IMG/VR virus record: IMGVR_UViG_3300037247_001116
Span: 38,659-102,658 of that record
From: a virus
Length of the DNA: 64,000 nucleotides
Strand: one strand, 5' to 3'
The notes under the pieces are model-generated. The model was not told where the DNA came from and did not search any database. It saw only the letters and a program-made list of their open reading frames with translations. Below, in pieces: positions 7,072 to 28,917 of the stretch. Numbering within the stretch: the stretch's first letter is position 1; every line of letters begins with the position of its first letter. The position numbers and the translations under genes are program-made.

Positions 7072-8418
7072 ATGCCATTTCTTAAAAAAAGCAATAATGC
7101 TCAATCAACTATCAATCAAGTGGGTGGTCTTACCCTTTTAGACACAGAGTTAATTGTAACAGATGCTTCCAGTTTTCCAGCAACAGGTGACTTTTTACTG
7201 ACGGTTTGGAATAGTGAAACACATCCTGACCCAACTGATGATGTCGGCAGAGAAATTATTTTAGTAACTGCTGTGGCTGGAAACACATTTACAATAGTAC
7301 GTGGTCAAGAAGACACAGTTGCCAGTTTACATGCTAACGGCACAATTGTTGCAATGCTTATTACAGCAGGTACATTTGAGGAAATTGAACAAGCAATACC
7401 AGCTAGTAGTCATGATCAAAATACTGATACGATTTTACAAACAGCAGGACTCATACTAGACCAGAGCCAATTACTTTTTGATACAGATGCAAAGTTCTAT
7501 AACACTAATACAGGCGTTCAAATCGCTCAATCTTTCATACCTGCTAACTCTGGAAATTTATCAAGGATTATTGTAAAGGTATTTAGAGCAAGTGGTGGCG
7601 CAAACGATCTTATTGTAGAATTAAGAGGAACTTCGGCTGGTCTGCCTACGGCGGGAGTTTTGGCGACAGAAACAATTCTAGCATCATCGTTAGAACAAGG
7701 CGAATGGGTAGATTTAACGATAGATTTTTCTTCCCCATTTTCGGTGACGACTGGAACTACTTACGCTGTTGTTTTTAGACAAGAAGGAAGTGAACAATAT
7801 TATTTTGAAAATGAGCCGTTTGTAAACCCTTATCCTAATGGATCAGCTCAAGTAAAAACTGGTGCAGGTGCTTGGATACCCGATGTGGCAGATGATCTTT
7901 ATTTTCAGATTTTTACCTTTATTGATGCCACCGATTTAATCAACAATGGAACTTTAAAAAGTGATTTAGATGCTGATGGAGGAATTCTAGTTGATGGTCG
8001 TGACCTATCAGTTGATGGCGCGGCACAAGATTCGCATATTGCTGATCAAAACAACCCTCATAATGTTAGCAAAACAAATGTCGGGTTAAGCAATGTTCCA
8101 GATTTAGACACAACTGATGCTGTCAACCATGTTTCTGATACAAATAATCCACATGGCGTTGAGGCTGACCAGATAGCGACTGATGATAGCGGTGTTACAG
8201 TTCAAGAAGCCTTAGATGCTTTAGAGGCTGGCGGAGGACAACTTGAAAGTTTGATGGCACAAGATATAGATGGAGATTTAAGACCGATTGATGATTATAT
8301 TCTTCAAGGCGGAAGCTTTGAATTAGATTCAAACTATGCTTTACAACCAAAAACTACTATTGAAGAAGATTTGTTTTTTGAATATGATATTAATAACGAT
8401 TTAATACCAAAGGAATAA
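7072..8418 (+). CDS. Fibre/appendage structural protein
   Basis: Acidic Thr/Gly-rich; VRGQEDT N-terminal motif; AQSF carbohydrate-binding-like domain; NPHxV repeats. Confidence 0.65.
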   Translation: MPFLKKSNNAQSTINQVGGLTLLDTELIVTDASSFPATGDFLLTVWNSETHPDPTDDVGREIILVTAVAGNTFTIVRGQEDTVASLHANGTIVAMLITAGTFEEIEQAIPASSHDQNTDTILQTAGLILDQSQLLFDTDAKFYNTNTGVQIAQSFIPANSGNLSRIIVKVFRASGGANDLIVELRGTSAGLPTAGVLATETILASSLEQGEWVDLTIDFSSPFSVTTGTTYAVVFRQEGSEQYYFENEPFVNPYPNGSAQVKTGAGAWIPDVADDLYFQIFTFIDATDLINNGTLKSDLDADGGILVDGRDLSVDGAAQDSHIADQNNPHNVSKTNVGLSNVPDLDTTDAVNHVSDTNNPHGVEADQIATDDSGVTVQEALDALEAGGGQLESLMAQDIDGDLRPIDDYILQGGSFELDSNYALQPKTTIEEDLFFEYDINNDLIPKE

Positions 8419-8420
8419 AA

Positions 8421-10931
8421 ATGGGCACTCGGAATATAGTTCCACGCGAAAATAACGAAGGAAATATCGGTACATCTGTAAAAAAATGGCTTAAAGGCTG
8501 GTTTGCTTCTGTTTTTGTCAATGGCAATATTACAGATGGTGTAAACAATGTCACTGTTGCTGAGTTGAGAAACCAACTTGATAATCCATCCACTCCTGAT
8601 GCAGACCAAATCGCAACAACTGATTCGGGCGAAACAGTCCAATCGAAAATTGACGATGCAGACGCACATGCGGTAAACACATCAAACCCACATTCTGTAA
8701 CACCAGCCCAGGTTGCTACTGCACATACTGATTTAACTGACATGCCAAGCGCGAGCAATTCTGACCATGACGAAAGATATACTTCAAGGTCACTTGTTAA
8801 TGGATCATTTAAAGAAACATTTAACTCTTTGGCTTCCTCTGATGGCGCAACTGTTTTGGCTGATTTAGAGCAATCAGGTGGTGGAGATTTAACGATGCAG
8901 TTTAGTGATGGAGATACAATTTTAGATACCACTCCTTCTCCTATAACAATCGAACTTACTGCGGGAACAGACACTAATCCTCAATCAAATTATATTTATA
9001 TCCCTCAATCAACAAAAATACTTACTAAATCTATTTCTGGATTTCCTACAGATACAGAACACATTAAGGTAGCATATTTCTTGGTTCCAAGCGCACCATA
9101 TGTAGCGGCAGATGGAGTTTATATCAATCAGAACTGGAACGACCATTTAATCGGCGGAGATAATCAAGGACATCTTTCTCATATGTCTGAAAGACAAAGG
9201 CGAATGGGAGCCTCTTATTTTAGCGGATTAGACCCTGCTGGAACAGATGATTCGGTAGCTACATCATATTTTGATTATGTCGGCGCGTCAGAGAGTTATT
9301 TTAAATGTTCTTCGGGTGTTATTTACCAGTTACACACCCATCCTGTATTAGCAACTGATAGCAGAACTGACATCATTCATGTTATAAACTGGAATGGAAA
9401 TTCTTACAACGATATAAACAACCTTGCTGATATTATTTCTGATTCGGAGGGCGTTTCATTAGGAAATAAATATTTCAATTTATTTTTCTTTGAAGTTGGA
9501 AATAAAACAGGCGCGTATTCTCCAATAATGTGTATGTTGCCTAGTGGATCATATAATTCGGAAATAAGTGCTTTAAACGATAGTTCTGGTTATGGAAATC
9601 TTAACATGCCTAGAGAGTTTGGTTTAGAGTCCTCTACTGGTATTCCTATATGCAAATTGACTTTGAAGTGGTCTGGTGGAACAACAACATTAACTCATAT
9701 ATCCACAGTAGATCTAAGACAAGGCGCTGGCTTGAGTGGTGGCGATGGAGGAGTAACAGATCACGGAGCATTGACAGGCTTGGCTGACGACGACCATTCT
9801 CAATATCACAATGATTCAAGGGGCGACACAAGATATTTATATAAAGAGAACACAACACCGTTTACGCCAGATGCGGATCACGAACCATCAACAAAGAAAT
9901 ACACTGATGATACAGTAAGCACTCATGCTACCAACACAAGCAACCCCCATTCAGTAACAAAAACACAGGTGGGTTTAACAAACGTCGATGATGTTCAGCA
10001 AATGCCTTTATCTTATTTAGATACTGACCCTGCACTCGCCGCAGATTCAGATACAAAGGTTGCTTCTCAAAAAGCTGGAAAAGCATATATTAATGCTCTC
10101 TTAGAAGCCAACGATGCAATGGTTTACAAAGGAGTTATTGATTGTGGTGGAAATCCTGATTATCCCGCCGCAGAAGCAGGTCATACTTATAGAATTAGTG
10201 TGGCTGGAAAACTCGGTGGAGCCTCTGGTGAAAACGTAGAAGTTGGTGATATGGCTATTTGTGTTGCTGATAGTACAGCATCGGGCGACCAAGCGGCTGT
10301 AGGTGAATTTTGGAATATCATTCAAGTAAACATTGACGGAAATGTTGTAGCATTAAGTCCATTTATTTCTGTTGATGATAACATACCAAAATATAGCGGA
10401 ACATCTGGAAGAATTCTTGAAGATAGCGGAGTAGCCATTTCTGATGTCACAGGTCACATTGCTGATACAGCCAACCCTCACAGCGTTGTCGCGGATCAAG
10501 TAGGAACCGATGATAGTGGTGTTACAGTCCAGTCGGCTTTAGATGCAGTTGAATCCGATGTCGTTGATTTAAAAGAATCCGTTCTTACCTTTGTTATTGA
10601 TGGTGGCGGAAGTGAAATTTCGACAGGTGTTAAAGGTGATTTATTAGTTCCTTTCGGATGTACGATTACCAAAGTCACTTTATTAGCAGACCAAACAGGA
10701 AGTGTGGTTATAGATATTTGGAAAGATACTTATGCTAATTTCGATCCTACGGTTGCTGATTCAATTACGGCAAGTGCTAAACCGACGATTACAACAGCAA
10801 AAAAATCGCAAGATGCAACATTAACTGGTTGGACAACTGCGATAACTGCGGAAGATATTTTAAGATTTAATGTTGACAGTATTACTGACATTCAAAGAGT
10901 TTCAATTATTTTATCGATAACGAGGAATTAA
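8421..10931 (+). CDS. Long fibre/appendage structural protein
   Basis: NTSNPHSVT repeats, DHGALTGLADDDHSQY, YKGVIDC module, C-terminal FVIDGGG...IDIWK domain. Confidence 0.7.
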   Translation: MGTRNIVPRENNEGNIGTSVKKWLKGWFASVFVNGNITDGVNNVTVAELRNQLDNPSTPDADQIATTDSGETVQSKIDDADAHAVNTSNPHSVTPAQVATAHTDLTDMPSASNSDHDERYTSRSLVNGSFKETFNSLASSDGATVLADLEQSGGGDLTMQFSDGDTILDTTPSPITIELTAGTDTNPQSNYIYIPQSTKILTKSISGFPTDTEHIKVAYFLVPSAPYVAADGVYINQNWNDHLIGGDNQGHLSHMSERQRRMGASYFSGLDPAGTDDSVATSYFDYVGASESYFKCSSGVIYQLHTHPVLATDSRTDIIHVINWNGNSYNDINNLADIISDSEGVSLGNKYFNLFFFEVGNKTGAYSPIMCMLPSGSYNSEISALNDSSGYGNLNMPREFGLESSTGIPICKLTLKWSGGTTTLTHISTVDLRQGAGLSGGDGGVTDHGALTGLADDDHSQYHNDSRGDTRYLYKENTTPFTPDADHEPSTKKYTDDTVSTHATNTSNPHSVTKTQVGLTNVDDVQQMPLSYLDTDPALAADSDTKVASQKAGKAYINALLEANDAMVYKGVIDCGGNPDYPAAEAGHTYRISVAGKLGGASGENVEVGDMAICVADSTASGDQAAVGEFWNIIQVNIDGNVVALSPFISVDDNIPKYSGTSGRILEDSGVAISDVTGHIADTANPHSVVADQVGTDDSGVTVQSALDAVESDVVDLKESVLTFVIDGGGSEISTGVKGDLLVPFGCTITKVTLLADQTGSVVIDIWKDTYANFDPTVADSITASAKPTITTAKKSQDATLTGWTTAITAEDILRFNVDSITDIQRVSIILSITRN

Positions 10932-13758: not shown

Positions 13759-14736
13759 ATGAAAGTTAAATTAACTGCTGAACAAAAATCAGCACTAAAA
13801 GAAGAAATGCAGAAAGCAGGAGCAATGTCTGCGGCTGATAGAGAAATTTTTATCGCCAAGACGATAGGTGAGGTCTATGATTTAGAACTCCCTATTCCTG
13901 AAGTTATTTCTGCAATTGCTCGTTTCGAGCGCGTTGCTGTTGGAGAGCATTTGTTTTATAATGTTCCTGCCGCAATTACAAAAGCCGTTAGAACGATTAC
14001 ATCAGGTTGTGTTTTAACGCAAACCAAAGTTAGCCCGAACACTCGTACAGAGGTTTCTTGGACTGACTTGGTTTCTGAACAAGTATATGTTTGTTTGCAT
14101 GATTGGGTCAAAGGCGATCACGACGTGCTTACATTCAATGCTGACGCGATTCAGGAAGCAATGGATCGTAAGGAAATCTATCTTGTATTAGCTTTGGCTC
14201 TTGCAGGAGCAGTTTCCGAAAGTAATGTGTATACACTTCGCAGTGGTGAAGATAAGTTCGTTTATCCTGACCTTGTTGATATGGCTCGTTCTATCGCAAG
14301 ATATGGTAAAGATCTTGTGCTTATTACTGGTGGAGAAATCACGACTGACATTCAGTTGTTGAATTATGATGCTGATAAAAATAGTTCGGTTTCTATTTTT
14401 GACGTTGTTCAGAAGCATATTCCAATTGAAGAGTTAAGCGTTACGATTAATGGCACACCTACGGTTGTGCTTGCGGCTGATGTAGCCATTTTGGTTGCTG
14501 TATCTGATGCCAAAAAGAATCGTTCCCTGCTTGTCGCTCGTCGTCAGATGGGTCAAGTTGTACAGAAAAGCGATACGGAATACATGGATCAAGCGGCTGA
14601 ACGTATTGTTATTTCTACTGGCAACACGGTAGGTGTTGGAACTGACATGTTGTTAGCAAAGGGTTTTGTCGGTTTTGAAGAGTTTAGTGGCACGTCTTTG
14701 AATGACAAGACGTATGCTAAGTTCACGCGAGAATAA
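13759..14736 (+). CDS. Major capsid protein
   Basis: 325 aa after the scaffold; strong AGGAGG RBS; followed by a hairpin. Confidence 0.75.
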   Translation: MKVKLTAEQKSALKEEMQKAGAMSAADREIFIAKTIGEVYDLELPIPEVISAIARFERVAVGEHLFYNVPAAITKAVRTITSGCVLTQTKVSPNTRTEVSWTDLVSEQVYVCLHDWVKGDHDVLTFNADAIQEAMDRKEIYLVLALALAGAVSESNVYTLRSGEDKFVYPDLVDMARSIARYGKDLVLITGGEITTDIQLLNYDADKNSSVSIFDVVQKHIPIEELSVTINGTPTVVLAADVAILVAVSDAKKNRSLLVARRQMGQVVQKSDTEYMDQAAERIVISTGNTVGVGTDMLLAKGFVGFEEFSGTSLNDKTYAKFTRE

Positions 14737-14750
14737 ACCTCGTTTAGTAA

Positions 14751-14783
14751 AGAGAAGGGGAGAACAAGATTCTCCTCTTCTCT
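14751..14783 (+). terminator. Stem-loop after MCP (terminator or mRNA stabiliser)
   Basis: AGAGAAGGGGAGAA-caaga-TTCTCCTCTTCTCT; weak U-tract. Confidence 0.65.
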
Positions 14784-14810
14784 CCGATTAATATTTAACA
14801 GGAAATAAAA

Positions 14811-15945: not shown

Positions 15946-16206
15946 ATGGCTGGTAGATGTTATGAAATTAAAATATCAAATGAAATTATAACCAATGAAA
16001 TTCCTGACGGTTCTGTTAATTCGTCAAATAAAGATTTTGAGTTATTAAATACGCCTGTTATTGGAACTGTTGAGGTATATTTGGGCGGTTTAATACAATC
16101 TCCTGGTGCTGGTCTGGATTATACGATAAGTGGCAAAACCATCTTGTTTATCAAAGCTCCTAGAAATAACAGTGAACTTTTGGTTAGTTATATTAAAGAC
16201 AATTAA
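15946..16206 (+). CDS. Small virion beta-repeat protein
   Basis: NEIPDGSVNSSN...VEVYLGG...GAGLDY...KAPR; paralogous to the C-terminus of 16519..17199. Confidence 0.65.
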   Translation: MAGRCYEIKISNEIITNEIPDGSVNSSNKDFELLNTPVIGTVEVYLGGLIQSPGAGLDYTISGKTILFIKAPRNNSELLVSYIKDN

Positions 16207-16228
16207 TAATTTAAAAAGGAGAAATAAA

Positions 16229-16477
16229 ATGGCTTCTTCAAGACCAAAAAAAACTATAGCGAAGAAAAGAGTAACTAAGAAAAAAGTTATAAACACAGAT
16301 ATTAAAAAAGAAATCATTGAAAAACTGTTGAGTGAAAAAAGAGCAGAAATTCAAAAAAAACTTGAACTTGTTAATAAAGTCAAACAATCTTTACAAAATG
16401 AAGCTAAAAAATTATCCGAACTTGAAGGAGCAATTATCGTTCTTCATGAATTATTAACAGGCGAAAAGGTAGAGTAA
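16229..16477 (+). CDS. Basic coiled-coil protein
   Basis: AGGAG RBS before ATG 16229. Confidence 0.65.
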   Translation: MASSRPKKTIAKKRVTKKKVINTDIKKEIIEKLLSEKRAEIQKKLELVNKVKQSLQNEAKKLSELEGAIIVLHELLTGEKVE

Positions 16478-16518: not shown

Positions 16519-17199
16519 ATGGGAAATAGAAATACAGTTATATATGGTGATCAAATTGATGATACAGTCCTGGGTGCTGGTTTAGTCAAGAATGTTTCTG
16601 ATGATTTCACACATAAGCTCGATGTTAATGTCGATGATTCATCTATTGAAATTGACACAAACATAGTTAGAGTTAAAGCATCAGGTGTAACCAATGATAT
16701 GTTAGCTGGTTCAATTGCTGATGGAAAATTGTTACAGGATTATATCCAAACTTCTGAAGTTGATGATAGCACAATCGAATTTGGTGGAGGAAGTCTTAAT
16801 GTTAAAGCATTAGGAATTAATACTGCTGAATTGGCTAATGAGGCTGTCACTGAAGGAAAAATTGCAATCTTTAATAGCCCGACCATTGGAGAGTATTTAA
16901 AATTTACTTCTAATGGAATGGAATGGATTGCTCTTTCTACTGAGTTTGTTGAAATAACAGATGTTGTTACTAATGAAATTCCAACTGGCTTAATTAATTC
17001 TAGCAATACAGATTATGACTTAGCTAATACACCTGTCGAGGCTACAGTAGAAGTATATTTAAATGGTATATTTCAAGCTCAAGGAGCAGGTTTAGATTAT
17101 GAACTTAATCCTTCATCTGGTCAAACAGAAACTATTGTTTTCTCTAAAGCACCGAGAACTAATAGTGACATTTATGTGAGTTATATAATCAATAATTAA
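16519..17199 (+). CDS. Virion fibre-like protein
   Basis: VDDSSIEI and VDDSTIEF repeats; C-terminal NEIPTGLINSSN repeat. Confidence 0.7.
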   Translation: MGNRNTVIYGDQIDDTVLGAGLVKNVSDDFTHKLDVNVDDSSIEIDTNIVRVKASGVTNDMLAGSIADGKLLQDYIQTSEVDDSTIEFGGGSLNVKALGINTAELANEAVTEGKIAIFNSPTIGEYLKFTSNGMEWIALSTEFVEITDVVTNEIPTGLINSSNTDYDLANTPVEATVEVYLNGIFQAQGAGLDYELNPSSGQTETIVFSKAPRTNSDIYVSYIINN

Positions 17200-17211
17200 C
17201 AATAATATTTT

Positions 17212-17251
17212 CAGGGGCAGTTAGAAATAACTGCCCTTGTTAATACTTTTT
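17212..17251 (+). terminator. Intrinsic terminator-like hairpin
   Basis: CAGGGGCAGTTA-GAAA-TAACTGCCCTTG followed by a T-rich run. Confidence 0.7.
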
Positions 17252-17263
17252 AAAGGCTAAATC

Positions 17264-21796: not shown

Positions 21797-23029
21797 ATGG
21801 CAGATGAAATTTTACATGGGAGAGCAATTAGTCCTTGGATCATCCCAAACAAGGGTGGAAGTCCTGACGACTTTCATGGATTGACAAATGTTGGAGCAGA
21901 CCCAAGTGTTGCTTCAGAAAAAGTTTATGTTATTGGAAAAACGGCGGCATGTGGTACAGATAAAGAAACACCAGTGGTAACGGTTCCGTTACCGATGTTA
22001 GAAAGAGGAGAAATTGATTCGTATCTTACGCTTGCAAATTTAGATGCCGAACCTGCTGGTGGTTTTGACCTGCTTGATTTCAGTTCCTCTTTGGTTGATG
22101 TAGTTTATTATATTAGAGATGCAAATGCTGGTAATGTTTTAGCGTCCATGTGGATGCCGAAATGTGCATTAAACAGTTTAGCGATCAATTTCGACGACCC
22201 CAAGGGTAGGATTACAAGGGATTTAGAAGTTGGAAGCGACGATAGACGAGTTTTCTTAGGTGGAAATAAATATCTTATCCATCTTGAAGACACTGCGCCA
22301 TCTGGAACTTCTGGTTCTTATGAAATAGATGTTTCTGATCCTGCACCTGTTGTTGACCCAAATGTTGCATTGTCATATATTCTTCGTATTGATAGAACAA
22401 GAGCTGGTGTAACAACCTCTTTGGCTATCACAACGGATTATACATATACACATGGAACTTTTACGATTGATGTCCTAGCCGCATTAGCTGATGATGTTTA
22501 TAATGTTTATTATAGTGCCGCGTCTTTTGGTACGCCAGCAGATCCGACAAGTATTGATTCGGATTCGATTTGTTATTTGAAGGCAGAAAACATCACGGTT
22601 CTTATTGACGACGGATCTACAGAAGTAGAGATGGACAGGTTAAGTTCATTATCAATTTCTGTAACGATTAATCGTATTGATGAGAATGTTCTTGGAGATG
22701 ACGAAACAATTCTTCGTGAAATTACGGACACACCAGTTACAGTAGCATTTTCTGGTCGTGTTAAAAATTATAACGGAGAAAAGGCATGGATGGCTCAGTT
22801 AGGCGACACAGAAGTTATTTCAAGTGTCAAACTTTTTAGCGATGCTGTTAAAATCTCTGTTAAAATCCACGACAATGCAGATAAAGACACCTTTTTGATT
22901 GGTTATCAGGTTGATAATCTGTCTTACACAGACGGAAGCTTTTCAACTGATGCTAATGAATTTGGTACGATGGATGTGACCGCCGAAGGCGATAATCTTT
23001 TGATTACCACTACTGAAGGCGATCTGTAA
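21797..23029 (+). CDS. Major tail tube protein
   Basis: 410-aa acidic beta-rich ORF with strong RBS, between the neck genes and chaperones/tape measure. Confidence 0.7.
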   Translation: MADEILHGRAISPWIIPNKGGSPDDFHGLTNVGADPSVASEKVYVIGKTAACGTDKETPVVTVPLPMLERGEIDSYLTLANLDAEPAGGFDLLDFSSSLVDVVYYIRDANAGNVLASMWMPKCALNSLAINFDDPKGRITRDLEVGSDDRRVFLGGNKYLIHLEDTAPSGTSGSYEIDVSDPAPVVDPNVALSYILRIDRTRAGVTTSLAITTDYTYTHGTFTIDVLAALADDVYNVYYSAASFGTPADPTSIDSDSICYLKAENITVLIDDGSTEVEMDRLSSLSISVTINRIDENVLGDDETILREITDTPVTVAFSGRVKNYNGEKAWMAQLGDTEVISSVKLFSDAVKISVKIHDNADKDTFLIGYQVDNLSYTDGSFSTDANEFGTMDVTAEGDNLLITTTEGDL

Positions 23030-23035
23030 TCTACT

Positions 23036-23269
23036 CTGAAATCATTGCCGTAAGGCTTGATTGTCAGTTATGTCTAAATCCACATAGGTATAAAGGCTGA
23101 GAATTTTATATTTGATATGTGGAGAATGGAATTTGGTGACACCTTCTCAGAGGTAAAACACCATTTTCCGATATATGAATGGTAGATAATTGTTGGGTTT
23201 CCCGAAGGTTATCTATAAAATGTTTTGAGAAGGAGTGGGATACATGAGCGTCCTACCCTTCTCTTACAT
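23036..23269 (+). ncRNA. Candidate structured non-coding RNA (five hairpins, possible kissing loop)
   Basis: Five consecutive stems fill the 256-bp intergenic gap; loop CTGAGAA complements loop TTCTCAG; strand inferred from G-U pairs and operon direction. Confidence 0.6.
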
Positions 23270-23285
23270 AAAAAGTGAGGAACGT

Positions 23286-23555
23286 ATGGATAAGAAATTG
23301 AAAGAATTTATAAATAAACTCTGTAAAGATCAGAGCCGAACCCTTGTAGGAAGAATTTGCAAACAAATAGAAATTCTTCAGGATCAACCTAATCTTTCTA
23401 TTGAAACAAAACAGACTTTAGACCTTTTAAAATCTCTTAACAAAGAACTCATTTATGAGGAATTTAGGGATTTGAAGAATGCTGTTGTTTTTTATTCAGA
23501 AGGTCGCGAATACGAAAAATATCCAATCTACACCCCCACTAAAGAAACAAAATAG
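23286..23555 (+). CDS. Hypothetical helical protein downstream of the structured RNA
   Basis: GAGG RBS before ATG 23286; MDKKLKEF...KELIYEEFRDL. Confidence 0.75.
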   Translation: MDKKLKEFINKLCKDQSRTLVGRICKQIEILQDQPNLSIETKQTLDLLKSLNKELIYEEFRDLKNAVVFYSEGREYEKYPIYTPTKETK

Positions 23556-23572
23556 GTGGGGTCTTTTTATTT
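23532..23572 (+). terminator. Intrinsic terminator
   Basis: ACCCCCACTA...TAGGTGGGGT then CTTTTTATTT. Confidence 0.6.
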
Positions 23573-23587
23573 ACCGAAAGGCTTATT

Positions 23588-23728
23588 ATGGAAGAACGAA
23601 TGAAGGCATTAGAAGTTGAGATTTCCTATTTGAGAAAAGTTATCGAAGAGTTAAAAGAAATGCGTACTGTCGAAATTCACACCCATTTTACAAGTCAATA
23701 TTTACAATGCCCTGGAAACAAGGAATAA
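23588..23728 (+). CDS. Small hypothetical protein
   Basis: Manually read 46-aa ORF MEERMKALEVEISYLRKVIEELKE... Confidence 0.55.
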   Translation: MEERMKALEVEISYLRKVIEELKEMRTVEIHTHFTSQYLQCPGNKE

Positions 23729-23745
23729 TCGTAAGGAGTAAAAGC

Positions 23746-24384
23746 ATGGATATTTTATCACCCGAAAAAATAGCGCAACTCAAAGCCGTTTTGAAAGAGA
23801 TGGATGTGAGTTCTGCAAACGAATCATTGATTCAAGATAATAAAATTGTGTTCCCTTATAAGGATAAAATTTATCGCGTCCGAATGCCTAACCAAATCGA
23901 ACAGACACTTGCCGAAGAAGCACAGAACAAAGTCAAGCTCCGTTTAACCCAAGAGAAGGGCAATCGTTCAAGAAACCAGCTAATAAGAGATTTGAAAGAG
24001 AACAACGGTCTTGATGTGAAAGCTCTTGAAGCCGAAAAAGATGGAATTAAAGAAGAGTTGCAGTATGTTTATTTAGAATTGGCAGTTGTTCCTTCTGAGT
24101 TTCCTGATAAGATTGAAGCACTTATTAAAAAGAAGGAAGAAATCGAACTGCGTTTCATGGAAATTTTTGTCGAGCTTGCAGAAGTTCTTGAGCCTTGTAT
24201 TCAAGAACAAGCAAAAATCGAATTTTATAGATTTTTAGCTTTTACATGTGCAGAAGTCAAAACAGGAAAAGAAGATTTCACTTCTGTGTGGGAAACTTAT
24301 GATGATTGTAAAAAAGATGGTAGTGGATTATCAACACTTTTCTTAAATAATCTTCAAAGTTTATTGCTAAAGATTAAGGAATAA
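23746..24384 (+). CDS. Putative tail assembly chaperone
   Basis: AAGGAG RBS; position before tape measure. Confidence 0.55.
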   Translation: MDILSPEKIAQLKAVLKEMDVSSANESLIQDNKIVFPYKDKIYRVRMPNQIEQTLAEEAQNKVKLRLTQEKGNRSRNQLIRDLKENNGLDVKALEAEKDGIKEELQYVYLELAVVPSEFPDKIEALIKKKEEIELRFMEIFVELAEVLEPCIQEQAKIEFYRFLAFTCAEVKTGKEDFTSVWETYDDCKKDGSGLSTLFLNNLQSLLLKIKE

Positions 24385-24385
24385 A

Positions 24386-24769
24386 ATGTTATTAGAAGCC
24401 CATATCAGAAAACTTGCGAGAAGCAATTACTGGCAAGAAATTTATAATTCTTCTAAAACTTGTTCTGGAATTTATTTATTCGAAAATCAAACAAAATTTA
24501 GCGGAATCCAATACCTCTTTTTATATTGGTTGAGAGTATATGCAATGATATATTCTGAACTTGCTCAATTAGAGTGGACAAATTTGGATGAGGAAGTTAT
24601 TGAAAACAATGATAGATTCGATGCTTTTATGTATTGGCGGTCAAAGCATATAGAAAAACAGATAAGAAAATCGAAGTCAGAAGAGAAAAAACATAAAGAG
24701 AAACCAGGAATGTTAAATGTTCCGATTTATACTGGTAATAAAAATAAAGATAAAGAAGGTGACAAATAA
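24386..24769 (+). CDS. Putative second tail assembly chaperone
   Basis: Directly upstream of tape measure. Confidence 0.5.
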   Translation: MLLEAHIRKLARSNYWQEIYNSSKTCSGIYLFENQTKFSGIQYLFLYWLRVYAMIYSELAQLEWTNLDEEVIENNDRFDAFMYWRSKHIEKQIRKSKSEEKKHKEKPGMLNVPIYTGNKNKDKEGDK

Positions 24770-27504
24770 TGGCTGAAGGATTAGGAGCAACAGCAGTTAT
24801 CAATTACAGATTAAATGTTGAGGATGTCAAACGTCAGGTGAAACAGTTACAGCGCCTCAATTCGATTATGGCAAAAAACCTTGGTAAAGATTTTACCAAA
24901 GGAGCAATTATTGTTAGAAAAGAACTGACAAAAATTTCAGAATCAGTTAAACCCATCACATTAAAATCTGGTAAAACAACCAAAGAAATAAGAACTTTTA
25001 CAACCGTTGTTCGCGCCGCTAATGGACAATTAGCTACAATCACGCAGAGAACTGCTGGGCTTGGTAAAAATTTCAAAGTTTTAAACACCACTATTAAATC
25101 TGGTGCGGCTGGTATGCGAACATTTGGTCAAAACCTTGCCACTCTTGCCAAAAGAGCCGCTTTGACTATTCCATTATGGTTTGTTTTAAGACAAGGCATA
25201 GGTTCTGTTTTTCGAACCATCAAAGAAGGTTTATCAAGTATTGTTGCCTTTGATGCGGCATTGCAAAAAGCAAAACGAAATCTTCAAGGAACTACTGCTA
25301 GTATTGCACAAAATTTTGCCACATTAAAAACGGAAGTCACTAAATTATCTATCGAAACAGGAAGAAGTGTTGAAGACATCACGAATGCTTTTCAAAAATT
25401 CGCCACAGTTGGTTTTGATTTTGAAACATCAATGGCTGGCGCACAGAACGCGACGAAATTATCTATTCTATTGTTTGGTGATGCTACTGAAACGGCTAAT
25501 GCCTTTGCAAGAACCATGAGAGTTTTGATTGATGAAACAAATGGAGCCAAACCAGCAAGTGAGCAGTTAGCAGATGTCATGGCTTTAACAGCCGAATTGT
25601 GGGAAACAAATGCTTTCGAATTAAATGAAATGACCGCATCATTAGAAAGATTTGCCCCAGCCGCAAAGGTTGCTGGTTTCTCTGCTGATGAAGCTGTAAA
25701 ACTTATGGCTGGATTAAGCACCGCAGGACTTCGCGGAAGCAAAGCTGGGCGGTTGTTATCAACTTCATTGGTTCGTTTGTTAGTAAATACTGATAAATTA
25801 GCTGAAAGTTTAGGAGTTAAAGTAAATCCTGAAATGGACAGAACATTTGATGTGTTTTTAAGAACATTAGATGCCTTAAATAAAACAAGAAATGCGGCAG
25901 GTAAGGTTTCCCCTGCATTTGAAAAGATTACCAAGTCAATATTCGGCTTGCGCTCTGGTTTAGCTGTTAAAGGACTTATTGCTTTAAGAAAAAATTTACA
26001 AGAAGTTCTTAATGTTAAAGGCGATGTTTCTGACTTTAATAATAAATTTGAAGAAATAAACAAAACGACATTTCAATTGGACGCACAGGTTAAAAATTTA
26101 AATGTAACATTGGGTAGGGCTTTTGCTACTGGTATTGTTGGCGGTGAGGATTATGATGACGTACTACAAACTATTATAAATACGCAATTGAAATTGAGTG
26201 AAGGAATGGAACAGTTTGGCACAGTCGCCAGAAATGCTATCATATCTGGTGGTGTCGGGTCATTATTAATCTTCCGCGCCCAAATATTAAAAACGCTTGC
26301 TTTTGTAGCGGCAAACCCCATTGTTTTAGGAACAATAGCTACTTTTACAACATTAAATCTTATAGAGGACGTTATCAGGTTAAGAAAAGAATCAGATAAG
26401 GCTTCTATATCCCTTGCGGATGTTGCTATCGACTTTGCGAAAGAAATAGATAAAGCTCTATTGGGCGATTTAAATTTTGATGAAATAGATTTACTTATTG
26501 CTAGATTAGAAACCTTTGGAGCAAAACAAATCGGATTTGATGAAGTCAATTTTAATAATACTTTAAAAGTATTAAAAGAAATTCGGGCAGAAGAGGAAAA
26601 AATCAGCAAAGAAAAACAAAACCAAATTGATGCTGGTGAAAAAGCGACTATTCTTGAAGGAAAACGCACAAAGATTGCGAAGATTGTGTTAGAACATGAG
26701 TTAAAAATTTTAGAAGCAAGAGGGGCTAGTACGTCAGAATTGTTAAAGGCTGAAGGACTTATCAGAAACCAATTAAATATTGAAAAAAGTGCGAATGATC
26801 AATATAAAGATCGTTTGGAATTACAACGTGCAATAAATCAGGAAAAAGAACTCGAATCCACTTTATCTTCTAGGACACAAAAATTAGCCAAAATCGGAAG
26901 AGAAGAAGGCGTTCAAACAGCCAGACGATTAAGCGAGGTTTTATCAGGCGATTTCGACTTTGATTTGTTTGAAAGAATAGGCGGAAAGAATTTAGAAATA
27001 TTTAAAAAGGAATTTGCCAATATTTTTCAAGAACAACAAGATCTTAAATTTTTAAGAGGAAAAGGTTTTGATATCACTCCTGCTCAACGAGATATAGCTA
27101 AAATTAGTGGAGTATCTGTTGACCCAAGGGCAACATCGTTATCTCAAAGACAAGCCCAATTAGATATACGCAGGTTAGAAAAAACACCATTACTTATAGC
27201 AGGATTGAACGCAAACACAAATGCTAATATTGCCAACACACAATCATTATCTAGCTTATTAGCCGTTTTTGAGTCAACAGGATTTGTTAGGGGAGCCGAT
27301 ATTGTATCAGCTAAAAAAGCGGAAGCACAAAAAATAGATTTTAATATAACAATAGATGGTAAAAACTTAGATTTGAAATTTGGTTCTGAAAAAGAAGCTA
27401 GAGATATACTCACAAGTTTGCTTTCTGATAGAAGCACCATTGACAGAATAGTAAATAGTATACCATTTAAAAAAGCAACGGATGAAAGAATAGATAAATT
27501 TTAA
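24769..27504 (+). CDS. Tail tape measure protein
   Basis: 911-aa Ala-rich helical ORF; AGFSADEAVKLMAGLSTAGLRGSKAG core. Confidence 0.9.
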   Translation: MAEGLGATAVINYRLNVEDVKRQVKQLQRLNSIMAKNLGKDFTKGAIIVRKELTKISESVKPITLKSGKTTKEIRTFTTVVRAANGQLATITQRTAGLGKNFKVLNTTIKSGAAGMRTFGQNLATLAKRAALTIPLWFVLRQGIGSVFRTIKEGLSSIVAFDAALQKAKRNLQGTTASIAQNFATLKTEVTKLSIETGRSVEDITNAFQKFATVGFDFETSMAGAQNATKLSILLFGDATETANAFARTMRVLIDETNGAKPASEQLADVMALTAELWETNAFELNEMTASLERFAPAAKVAGFSADEAVKLMAGLSTAGLRGSKAGRLLSTSLVRLLVNTDKLAESLGVKVNPEMDRTFDVFLRTLDALNKTRNAAGKVSPAFEKITKSIFGLRSGLAVKGLIALRKNLQEVLNVKGDVSDFNNKFEEINKTTFQLDAQVKNLNVTLGRAFATGIVGGEDYDDVLQTIINTQLKLSEGMEQFGTVARNAIISGGVGSLLIFRAQILKTLAFVAANPIVLGTIATFTTLNLIEDVIRLRKESDKASISLADVAIDFAKEIDKALLGDLNFDEIDLLIARLETFGAKQIGFDEVNFNNTLKVLKEIRAEEEKISKEKQNQIDAGEKATILEGKRTKIAKIVLEHELKILEARGASTSELLKAEGLIRNQLNIEKSANDQYKDRLELQRAINQEKELESTLSSRTQKLAKIGREEGVQTARRLSEVLSGDFDFDLFERIGGKNLEIFKKEFANIFQEQQDLKFLRGKGFDITPAQRDIAKISGVSVDPRATSLSQRQAQLDIRRLEKTPLLIAGLNANTNANIANTQSLSSLLAVFESTGFVRGADIVSAKKAEAQKIDFNITIDGKNLDLKFGSEKEARDILTSLLSDRSTIDRIVNSIPFKKATDERIDKF

Positions 27505-28750: not shown

Positions 28751-28752
28751 TC

Positions 28753-28917
28753 ATGGCAGATAAGAACATAGCAAAATTCACAGTTCGTTTCTGGGATTAT
28801 TGGGTTGATGATCCTATTGATAGAGGATCAAACCCTATGATTCTAAATATGATATATGAAATAGAAAATACTAGAAAATTATATTTTATACAGAAGGAAC
28901 TAAATGACGACAATTAA
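28753..28917 (+). CDS. Small hypothetical protein
   Basis: GGAG RBS before ATG 28753. Confidence 0.5.
   Translation: MADKNIAKFTVRFWDYWVDDPIDRGSNPMILNMIYEIENTRKLYFIQKELNDDN

Follow-up and report, generated by a model that had tools for sequence, protein, structure and literature searches.

The widest space between genes of the tail operon in an uncultured marine-sediment phage holds, as comparison with its relatives shows, a conserved structured RNA core that is uncatalogued, and we tentatively propose that the RNA of this space acts in cis, as an intercistronic mRNA domain that forms a barrier to decay or processing. The window, that is, the whole stretch of 64,000 nucleotides that was analysed and to which positions refer, comprises bases 38659-102658 of the 102.6-kb IMG/VR virus record IMGVR_UViG_3300037247_001116 (CheckV completeness ~57%, G+C 33%), and the whole stretch is present in one sequencing run, a marine-sediment metagenome. 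Its + block is a virion-gene operon in which the genes almost abut, and the 256 nt at 23030-23285, between the tail tube gene and an open reading frame (ORF) of 89 amino acids (aa), here ORF89, are its biggest intergenic space; an earlier reading of the letters alone (the sequence-only reading) had drawn attention to this gap. That reading described five hairpins (H1-H5) in the gap, and every arm and loop that it named is found where it had been placed. What did not hold is the view of the five as one entity: H2 and H3 recur together at three related loci (L004-L006), H1 at one of these (L005) and in one further relative, H4 is confined to the window and H5 is generic. Judged by these comparisons, the gap would be a string of autonomous hairpin modules with different histories, and the conserved core, at 23070-23169 on the + strand, consists of H2 and H3 with the short single-stranded segments that flank and join them.

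Folding of 23030-23290 gave on the + strand a minimum free energy (MFE) of -84.6 kcal/mol as compared to -58.5 +/- 4.8 for 200 dinucleotide shuffles (z = -5.46), none of which folded as well, in agreement with the earlier claim that the gap is highly base-pairable. The minus strand folds less well (z = -4.45). The single hairpins H1-H5, folded separately, have z values from -3.3 to -4.1, and in a 150-nt folding scan of the whole genome the gap windows hold ranks 4 and 8 among ~2000, on the + strand. Searching 22000-25000 by cmscan against Rfam 15 at E <= 10 returned eight chance-level hits, none within 23030-23285, so that the suggestion of a + strand structured RNA outside the known families stands. 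The elements of the gap are as follows.

23036-23067, + strand: H1, a 32-nt hairpin with a C(GUAA)G tetraloop, z = -3.6, an optional module
23070-23078, + strand: the single-stranded 5' flank UGUCUAAAU (UCUAAA), 94% pairwise identity among four sequences
23079-23123, + strand: H2, 8 + 9 bp with a 3-nt bulge on the 3' side, z = -3.9
23124-23127, + strand: the linker GAAU between H2 and H3, 87.5% identity
23128-23169, + strand: H3, an outer stem, an asymmetric internal loop and an inner stem of 3-4 bp, with covariation
23183-23215, + strand: H4, a hairpin with z = -3.9 and no counterpart in relatives
23227-23263, + strand: H5, a G-rich hairpin next to the ribosome-binding site (RBS) and without a U-tract, z = -4.1, arms GAGAAGG at 23227 and CCTTCTC at 23257

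The evidence for the core comes from an alignment (A2) of the four sequences from which it is known, the window and L004-L006. The tube proteins of these three loci share 70-72% identity with that of the window, and in them H2-H3 lie directly past the tube stop codon or past an H1-like hairpin. RNAalifold recovered both hairpins from this alignment, with 19 of 33 pairs compensated. For the structure that includes the loop-loop helix, 94.6% of the alignment cells are paired and 20 of 37 pairs have changed on both sides, a level of pairing that none of 500 shuffles reached and that dropped to 38-55% in slid controls. In H2, helix 1 is 100% paired with four of its seven pairs covarying and helix 2 is 87% paired; in H3, covarying pairs amount to 10 of 11 in the outer and 3 of 3 in the inner stem. 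Identity is distributed unevenly, being 54% in the stem columns, 89% in the kissing-loop columns, 94% in the UCUAAA flank and 87.5% in the GAAU linker. As 20 of 37 pairs are compensated at a stem identity of 54%, selection appears to act on RNA pairing, and the covariation check proposed with the five hairpins thus upheld H2 and H3. The G-U pairs in the stems of both hairpins fit the + strand alone.

The second line of evidence is the pairing between the two loops. The apical loop of H2, GCUGAGAA, occupies 23096-23103 (8 nt), carries a YUNR motif and includes CTGAGAA at 23097-23103, of which CUGAGA is complementary to the 6-nt loop UCUCAG of H3 (23145-23150, within TTCTCAG at 23144-23150). This complementarity, which had been pointed out for the window, is intact in all four sequences as a 6-bp kissing helix, CURAGA/UCUYAG (columns 30-35 with 80-85 of A2, 100% paired), with a variable R:Y pair, for which the window and L005 have G:C and the other two sequences A:U. 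The tree of the tube proteins places L005 next to L006 as its sister (88% identical, support 0.99) and joins the window to L004 (support 0.999). The core sequences are consistent with this tree, L005-L006 being their closest pair (68%). As G:C and A:U alternate inside both sister pairs, at least two independent double substitutions must have taken place. Covariation of this kind cannot separate intramolecular from intermolecular pairing of the loops. A covariance model (R1) run across 43 sources found no copy of the core beyond the four training sequences, and three pattern scans of IMG/VR for the motif gave chance matches only, which were discarded by inspection and by the covariance model.

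The relatives were gathered by alignment-guided scans with the tube alignment, which gave two viral loci (IMG/VR, distant) and 40 metagenome loci, and a protein search listed 171 tube homologues with identities of 94-42%. No match was obtained in the GenBank phage collection by blastn and tblastn, in IMG/VR when ORF89 or the tube protein by itself served as query, or in GTDB genome contigs; contigs from four DNA runs were compared at 80% likeness, most of them without coverage of the gap. Across the loci the order of genes is constant: the tube gene, an ORF of ~83-102 aa, at some loci a small coiled-coil ORF, genes of ~212 aa and ~127 aa and the tape-measure gene.

The content of the gap, in contrast, is gained, lost and replaced module by module among phages that are otherwise 70-95% similar, making it a hot spot of turnover. 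H1 of L005 has the same 32-nt dot-bracket architecture as that of the window, with 6 of 12 pairs compensated, and H1 is also found in one relative from another run (X2). In this relative H1 (up to 23071) runs straight into an H5-like sequence, AATGTTGAGAAGGCG..., skipping 23072 to ~23219; as H1 is joined there to H5-like sequence, the H2-H4 block would be an indel between near relatives. Within the same tube clade H2-H3 are missing from L007, L002 and L008-L010; the X2 relative lacks them too, and H4 has no counterpart in L004-L006. H5 is similar to the hairpin that L007-L011 and L029 have next to the RBS, its 5' arm being like the L007/L008 type and like the loose end seen in the X2 relative. 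At 20 of 22 loci the space that separates the small ORF from the tube gene has a hairpin of -13 to -24 kcal/mol with a T-poor 9-nt tail, so the layout of the family, as read from these loci, would be the tube gene, one or more hairpins without a U-tract, the small ORF and a terminator. Locus L006 (1893-2054) has a gap of 275 nt that holds CTAAG three times (in the loop of H2, in mid-gap and in the loop of the last hairpin) and an H3-like copy, CTCTCTTGG, within a third hairpin; these repeats suggest an internal duplication of module parts.

The genes and signals on either side of the gap are the following.

21797-23029, + strand: the tail tube gene, 410 aa, modelled as a double-domain tube like T5 pb6 and P74-26 (AlphaFold2 and Foldseek)
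23275 and 23286-23555, + strand: a strong Shine-Dalgarno sequence (SD; GTGAGGAAC / GUGAGGAAC) at 23275 and ORF89, with its ATG at 23286
23533-23572, + strand: an intrinsic terminator over the stop codon of ORF89, stem CCCCAC 23534-23539 / GTGGGG 23556-23561, tail TCTTTTTATTT / UCUUUUUAUUU
24769-27504, + block of the window: the tape-measure gene, downstream of the tube gene

The identity of the tube gene, already claimed in the sequence-only reading, is borne out by structure prediction. Pfam and PHROG give no match to the 410-aa protein; its AlphaFold2 model (alignment A1) has a mean predicted local distance difference test (pLDDT) score of 85.4, and Foldseek against the PDB returned 8xan, 8ed0 and 9iny (E 6e-10 to 1e-8), matching the double-domain tail tubes of SH-Ab15497, P74-26 and T5 pb6. 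We therefore take the modelled protein to be the tail tube protein, and as its fold matches these tubes the phage would be T5-like in tail architecture. ORF89 is likewise a genuine conserved gene. Homologues are present in all relatives, and the 21 that were aligned each lie directly 3' of the tube gene; the AlphaFold2 model (pLDDT 89) consists of two helices forming a helical hairpin, and searches of Pfam, PHROGs, the protein atlas and, by fold, the PDB gave no match.

The hairpin over the ORF89 stop codon has 7 T in its 9-nt tail and so agrees with the definition of an intrinsic terminator. A hairpin spanning the stop codon of the small ORF and followed by a T-run was found in 17 of 17 relatives among the matches listed, at the same position, and this terminator, built over the last codons and the stop, keeps its place (L002-L039) even where the tube proteins are only ~40% identical. 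As the terminator follows the small ORF, the tube gene and the small ORF would form a strongly transcribed unit that precedes the chaperone and tape-measure genes. The 89-aa ORF and the terminator had been presented together with the RNA; both are real and conserved, yet by their distribution the tube gene, ORF89 and the canonical terminator are core elements of the whole family rather than a cassette that travels with the RNA. Right past the terminator begins a coiled-coil ORF of 46 aa (MEERMKALEVEI..., 23588-23728) that overlaps the start of a 225-aa gene, and its N-terminus is kept in L004-L006, L008 and L009.

Several known classes of element were considered for the gap and set aside. The hairpins of the gap are not intrinsic terminators, as their 9-nt tails hold 1-5 T and just one T follows the full H5; a terminator-like call that a scan made on H5 covers only its inner part and takes the 3' arm of H5 for a tail. 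No sigma-70-like promoter was found in 23030-23285 on either strand, phage-specific promoters being outside the scope of the scan. Repeats such as repetitive extragenic palindromic (REP) sequences, bacterial interspersed mosaic elements or miniature inverted-repeat transposable elements do not apply, as the words of the motif are unique in the 102.6-kb record, where the 10-, 11- and 12-mers shared with other places (89, 18 and 2) are close to the chance expectation (~48, 12 and 3). A target-site duplication around H2-H4 was rejected as well, the only candidate being a weak GTTAT-TCTA repeat that is present in the window only. Extension of the tube protein into the gap by frameshifting or readthrough is opposed by stop codons, TGA in CTGAAATCA at 23036 and TAA in GCCGTAAGGC at 23047, and the list of ORFs contains no extended tube frame.

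Among RNA classes, the hammerhead and other small ribozymes (considered by eye and with Rfam) do not fit, as CUGAGAA covaries with H3 and reads CUAAGAA in L004 and L006, with loss of a required core G. Mimicry of an anticodon loop by the loop of H2 fails on the length of the loop, which is 8 nt, and on its variable base, which tracks H3 and not a tRNA. A kissing-loop riboswitch of the purine or lysine type has no Rfam match, and its P1 helix is predicted in the window only and not in the consensus fold. The comparison with the packaging RNA (pRNA) of phi29, drawn in the sequence-only reading, did not lead to a class assignment: cmscan gave no match of the region to the pRNA model (RF00044), and a sigma-70-like promoter of its own was not found. 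The gap does share with pRNA two mutually complementary, covarying loops, CURAGA/UCUYAG in 4/4 sequences.

Based on these data we propose, tentatively, that the gap RNA works where it is transcribed. The gap would be transcribed within the late tail mRNA together with the tube gene, ORF89 and the terminator, and the core (UCUAAA flank, H2, GAAU and H3) would fold into two hairpins of nearly equal length, joined by the 6-bp kissing helix into a compact tertiary domain. This domain and the other hairpins without U-tracts would constitute a cis barrier to decay or processing and a structured spacer resistant to Rho and RNases. After endonucleolytic cleavage, or under 3'-exonucleolytic attack from downstream, the domain would shield the very abundant tube message and thereby uncouple tube expression from that of ORF89, the chaperone genes and the tape-measure gene; we infer from this arrangement that it would influence mRNA stability and the stoichiometry of the genes. 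In the classical layout, a hairpin without a U-tract protects the upstream cistron from 3' decay and keeps a long untranslated spacer folded. Upstream cistrons are stabilised in this way by the REP hairpins between malE and malF of E. coli and by the 3' hairpins that RNase III leaves on T7 mRNAs. Like these, the gap hairpins are stable, lack a U-tract, follow an abundantly expressed cistron and precede genes that are needed in lower amounts, which would make intercistronic stabiliser hairpins their nearest functional analogues, whereas the nearest structural analogues would be kissing-loop domains such as L2-L3 of the lysine and purine riboswitches and pRNA. A T7-type RNase III site is a duplex of ~20 bp with an internal loop, and H2 (17 bp and a bulge) is compatible in size with a putative site of this type. 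Unlike REP sequences, the gap element is unrepeated in the genome and has a covarying kissing helix and conserved loops and single-stranded segments.

Three further observations bear on this proposal. As the hairpin over the ORF89 stop codon has a T-run in nearly every relative and the tails in the gap are T-poor, the host seems to use canonical terminators, and the hairpins of the gap would serve for something else. The MFE folds of the window and of L004 leave the SD of ORF89 unpaired, which favours constitutive access to the RBS over its sequestration. A strong hairpin without a U-tract (AGAGAAGGGGAGAA...TTCTCCTCTTCTCT, at 14750-14785 in the region 14737-14810) also lies 3' of a 325-aa ORF (13759-14736) that is probably the major capsid protein gene, the protein atlas giving it a feature score of 0.98 to YonB-type capsid clusters, so that such hairpins would follow the two most abundant virion genes. 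The purine-rich 5' arm of the hairpin after the capsid gene starts like that of H5 (GAGAAGG).

Several points weigh against a barrier function. A simple decay barrier needs no conserved loops, no kissing helix and no UCUAAA and GAAU segments kept at ~90%, and the conservation of loops and single-stranded segments suggests that they meet a specific partner or line a tertiary pocket. L007, L002, L008-L010 and the X2 relative lack the module, which thus would be dispensable for the function of the tail operon, and the core is carried by four sequences only. As the true terminator lies past ORF89, the hairpins of the gap are internal to the primary transcript and could form a 3' barrier only after processing. 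The proposal does not explain the conserved unpaired segments and the patchy distribution.

A different role in cis, possible although we consider it doubtful, is that of a conformational or translational switch for ORF89, in which the tip of H3 has two exclusive partners, the loop of H2 and the RBS-proximal hairpin or the SD, and the choice between them, which a protein or folding during transcription may determine, would alter initiation. That H3 might pair with H5 had been suggested from the window, and the pair of CCTTCTCA (23142) and TGAGAAGG (23226) is indeed present: the 5' arm of H5 (UUUUGAGAAGGA) is the strongest duplex partner of the H3 tip, at -14.7 kcal/mol versus -9.5 for the loop of H2. 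In L006, the sole other locus with a long gap, the last hairpin ahead of the RBS likewise supplies the strongest partner, the 7-nt UCCUAAG (-10.6 versus -6.6 for the H2 loop). This alternative is not general, however. L004 and L005 carry H2-H3 directly before the RBS, without H5 or another second partner, and as they have H2-H3 but no H5, switching between H3 and H5 cannot be the conserved function of H2-H3. In the window, moreover, opening H5 (~-17 to -22 kcal/mol) for a duplex of -14.7 kcal/mol is unfavourable at equilibrium. As for the SD, the H2 loop CUGAGAA resembles it (GUGAGGAA) and the purine of the SD matches the pyrimidine of H3 in three of the four sequences, but pairing of the H3 tip with the SD is weak (4-6 bp including G-U), ranks fourth in L004 (-5.1 kcal/mol) and falls outside the top six in the other three, and the unpaired SD in the MFE folds of the window and L004 likewise speaks against control by sequestration.

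The conservation of the loops, ~89% while the stems drift, also agrees with an RNA that acts in trans, which we regard as unlikely: a stable noncoding RNA processed from the late transcript, trans-acting or oligomeric, with the loops of H2 and H3 pairing between molecules into dimers or rings. In one variant the YUNR loop of H2 (CUGA/CUAA) may target another RNA or serve as a decoy against host defence; such motifs are reportedly characteristic of antisense loops that pair fast (Franch et al. 1999). A distribution as patchy and accessory-like as that among the close relatives would fit an optional function such as counter-defence. Covariation of the loops is equally compatible with intermolecular pairing, as in ROOL and GOLLD, in which kissing loops at first taken for tertiary contacts turned out to bridge separate molecules (PMC12286853). 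ROOL, GOLLD and OLE resemble the core in being often phage-associated, with conserved hairpin loops that form covarying kissing pairs (PMC12286853), but they are stand-alone transcripts of 500-800 nt, whereas the core has ~100 nt and is embedded in an mRNA. With phi29 pRNA (RF00044) the core shares its size of ~100 nt, its phage origin and the two mutually complementary loops that covary between relatives; unlike pRNA it has a complementarity of 6 bp and not 4, and it sits in the tail operon of a T5-like siphovirus and not beside the packaging genes of a podovirus. Against a free RNA stand the lack of a sigma-70-like promoter and of a terminator of its own, the lack of a match to pRNA or any Rfam family, and the two hairpins of similar length with a 4-nt joint, which are compatible with an intramolecular kissing contact like L2-L3 of the lysine riboswitch. 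Slightly less probable still is the combined view of H2-H3 (with H1) as an optional, horizontally shuffled RNA gene riding in the late mRNA that, once released, associates with itself into dimers or rings through its YUNR kissing loops or uses these loops to capture a host or defence RNA. If true, the module would be a phage RNA of small size that works in trans or as a quaternary assembly, comparable in principle to pRNA or to the assemblies of ROOL and GOLLD.

We find it improbable that the core is an aptamer-like domain that binds a ligand or a protein, in which a weak P1 helix closes a three-way junction, the UCUAAA and GAAU joining strands form a pocket and the loop-loop helix holds H2 and H3 parallel as in the purine and lysine riboswitches; candidate partners are the tube protein and ORF89. 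In those riboswitches, neighbouring hairpins of similar length are held by loop-loop base pairs (L2-L3) next to a short conserved linker, and the core resembles them in its two neighbouring hairpins, short conserved linker, loop-loop pairs and conserved joining strands. The junction strands are the most conserved positions of the core (94% and 87.5%), the kissing loops are conserved, and in the MFE fold of the window the six bases 5' of H2 pair with the six 3' of H3 (UAUGUC 23069-23074 with GAUAUA 23170-23175). This P1, however, is AU-rich and unconvincing, has by inspection only 3-4 bp in L004-L006 and is not predicted by RNAalifold. The stems, ~17 bp, are far longer than those of known junction aptamers, no riboswitch family in Rfam matches, the distribution is patchy and dispensable, and ORF89 is predicted to be a plain helical hairpin without a recognisable RNA-binding fold.

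Very improbable, finally, is a DNA-level or neutral feature (half-sites for a protein, recombination-prone palindromes or unselected hairpins in a permissive gap): modules do turn over at this hot spot between phages that are otherwise 70-95% similar, and CTGAGAA/TTCTCAG is an inverted repeat whose halves, if bound by a dimeric protein, would also co-vary, but read from the other strand the G-U pairs become A-C mismatches, each complementary hexamer coincides with the apical loop of a hairpin that covaries independently of the other, compensation extends to 20 of 37 pairs with stems only 54% identical, and the genome has no further copies.

Other features of the record were observed along the way. 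A terminator-like hairpin (CAGGGGCAGTTA...TAACTGCCCTTG) with a T-rich tail lies at 17200-17263, 3' of a 226-aa ORF (16519-17199). The second-largest gap of the structural block, 153 nt at 28751-28903, holds an imperfect hairpin of considerable length (GGGATTATTGGGTTGATGATCC...GGATCAAACCCTATGATTCT). The region 7072-10931 encodes two large proteins, of 448 and 836 aa, with PHROG matches to tail fibre or collar fibre, upstream of the capsid gene and within the region of the head genes. The strongest-folding 150-nt window of the record, on both strands, lies outside the window at ~16100-16300 of G000:C1 (z ~-4.6, 20% G+C) and is probably an AT-rich palindrome.

Tail operons need hundreds of tube subunits per few chaperone and tape-measure molecules. 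The layout of this family is clear: structured RNA without a U-tract follows the tube gene, a canonical terminator comes one gene further on, and one clade adds an uncatalogued kissing-loop domain of two hairpins with strong covariation. With ~100 nt the module is well defined and suitable as a new RNA motif, and if the cis-acting barrier that we tentatively favour is correct, it would protect the tube message and set its expression apart from that of the genes that follow.

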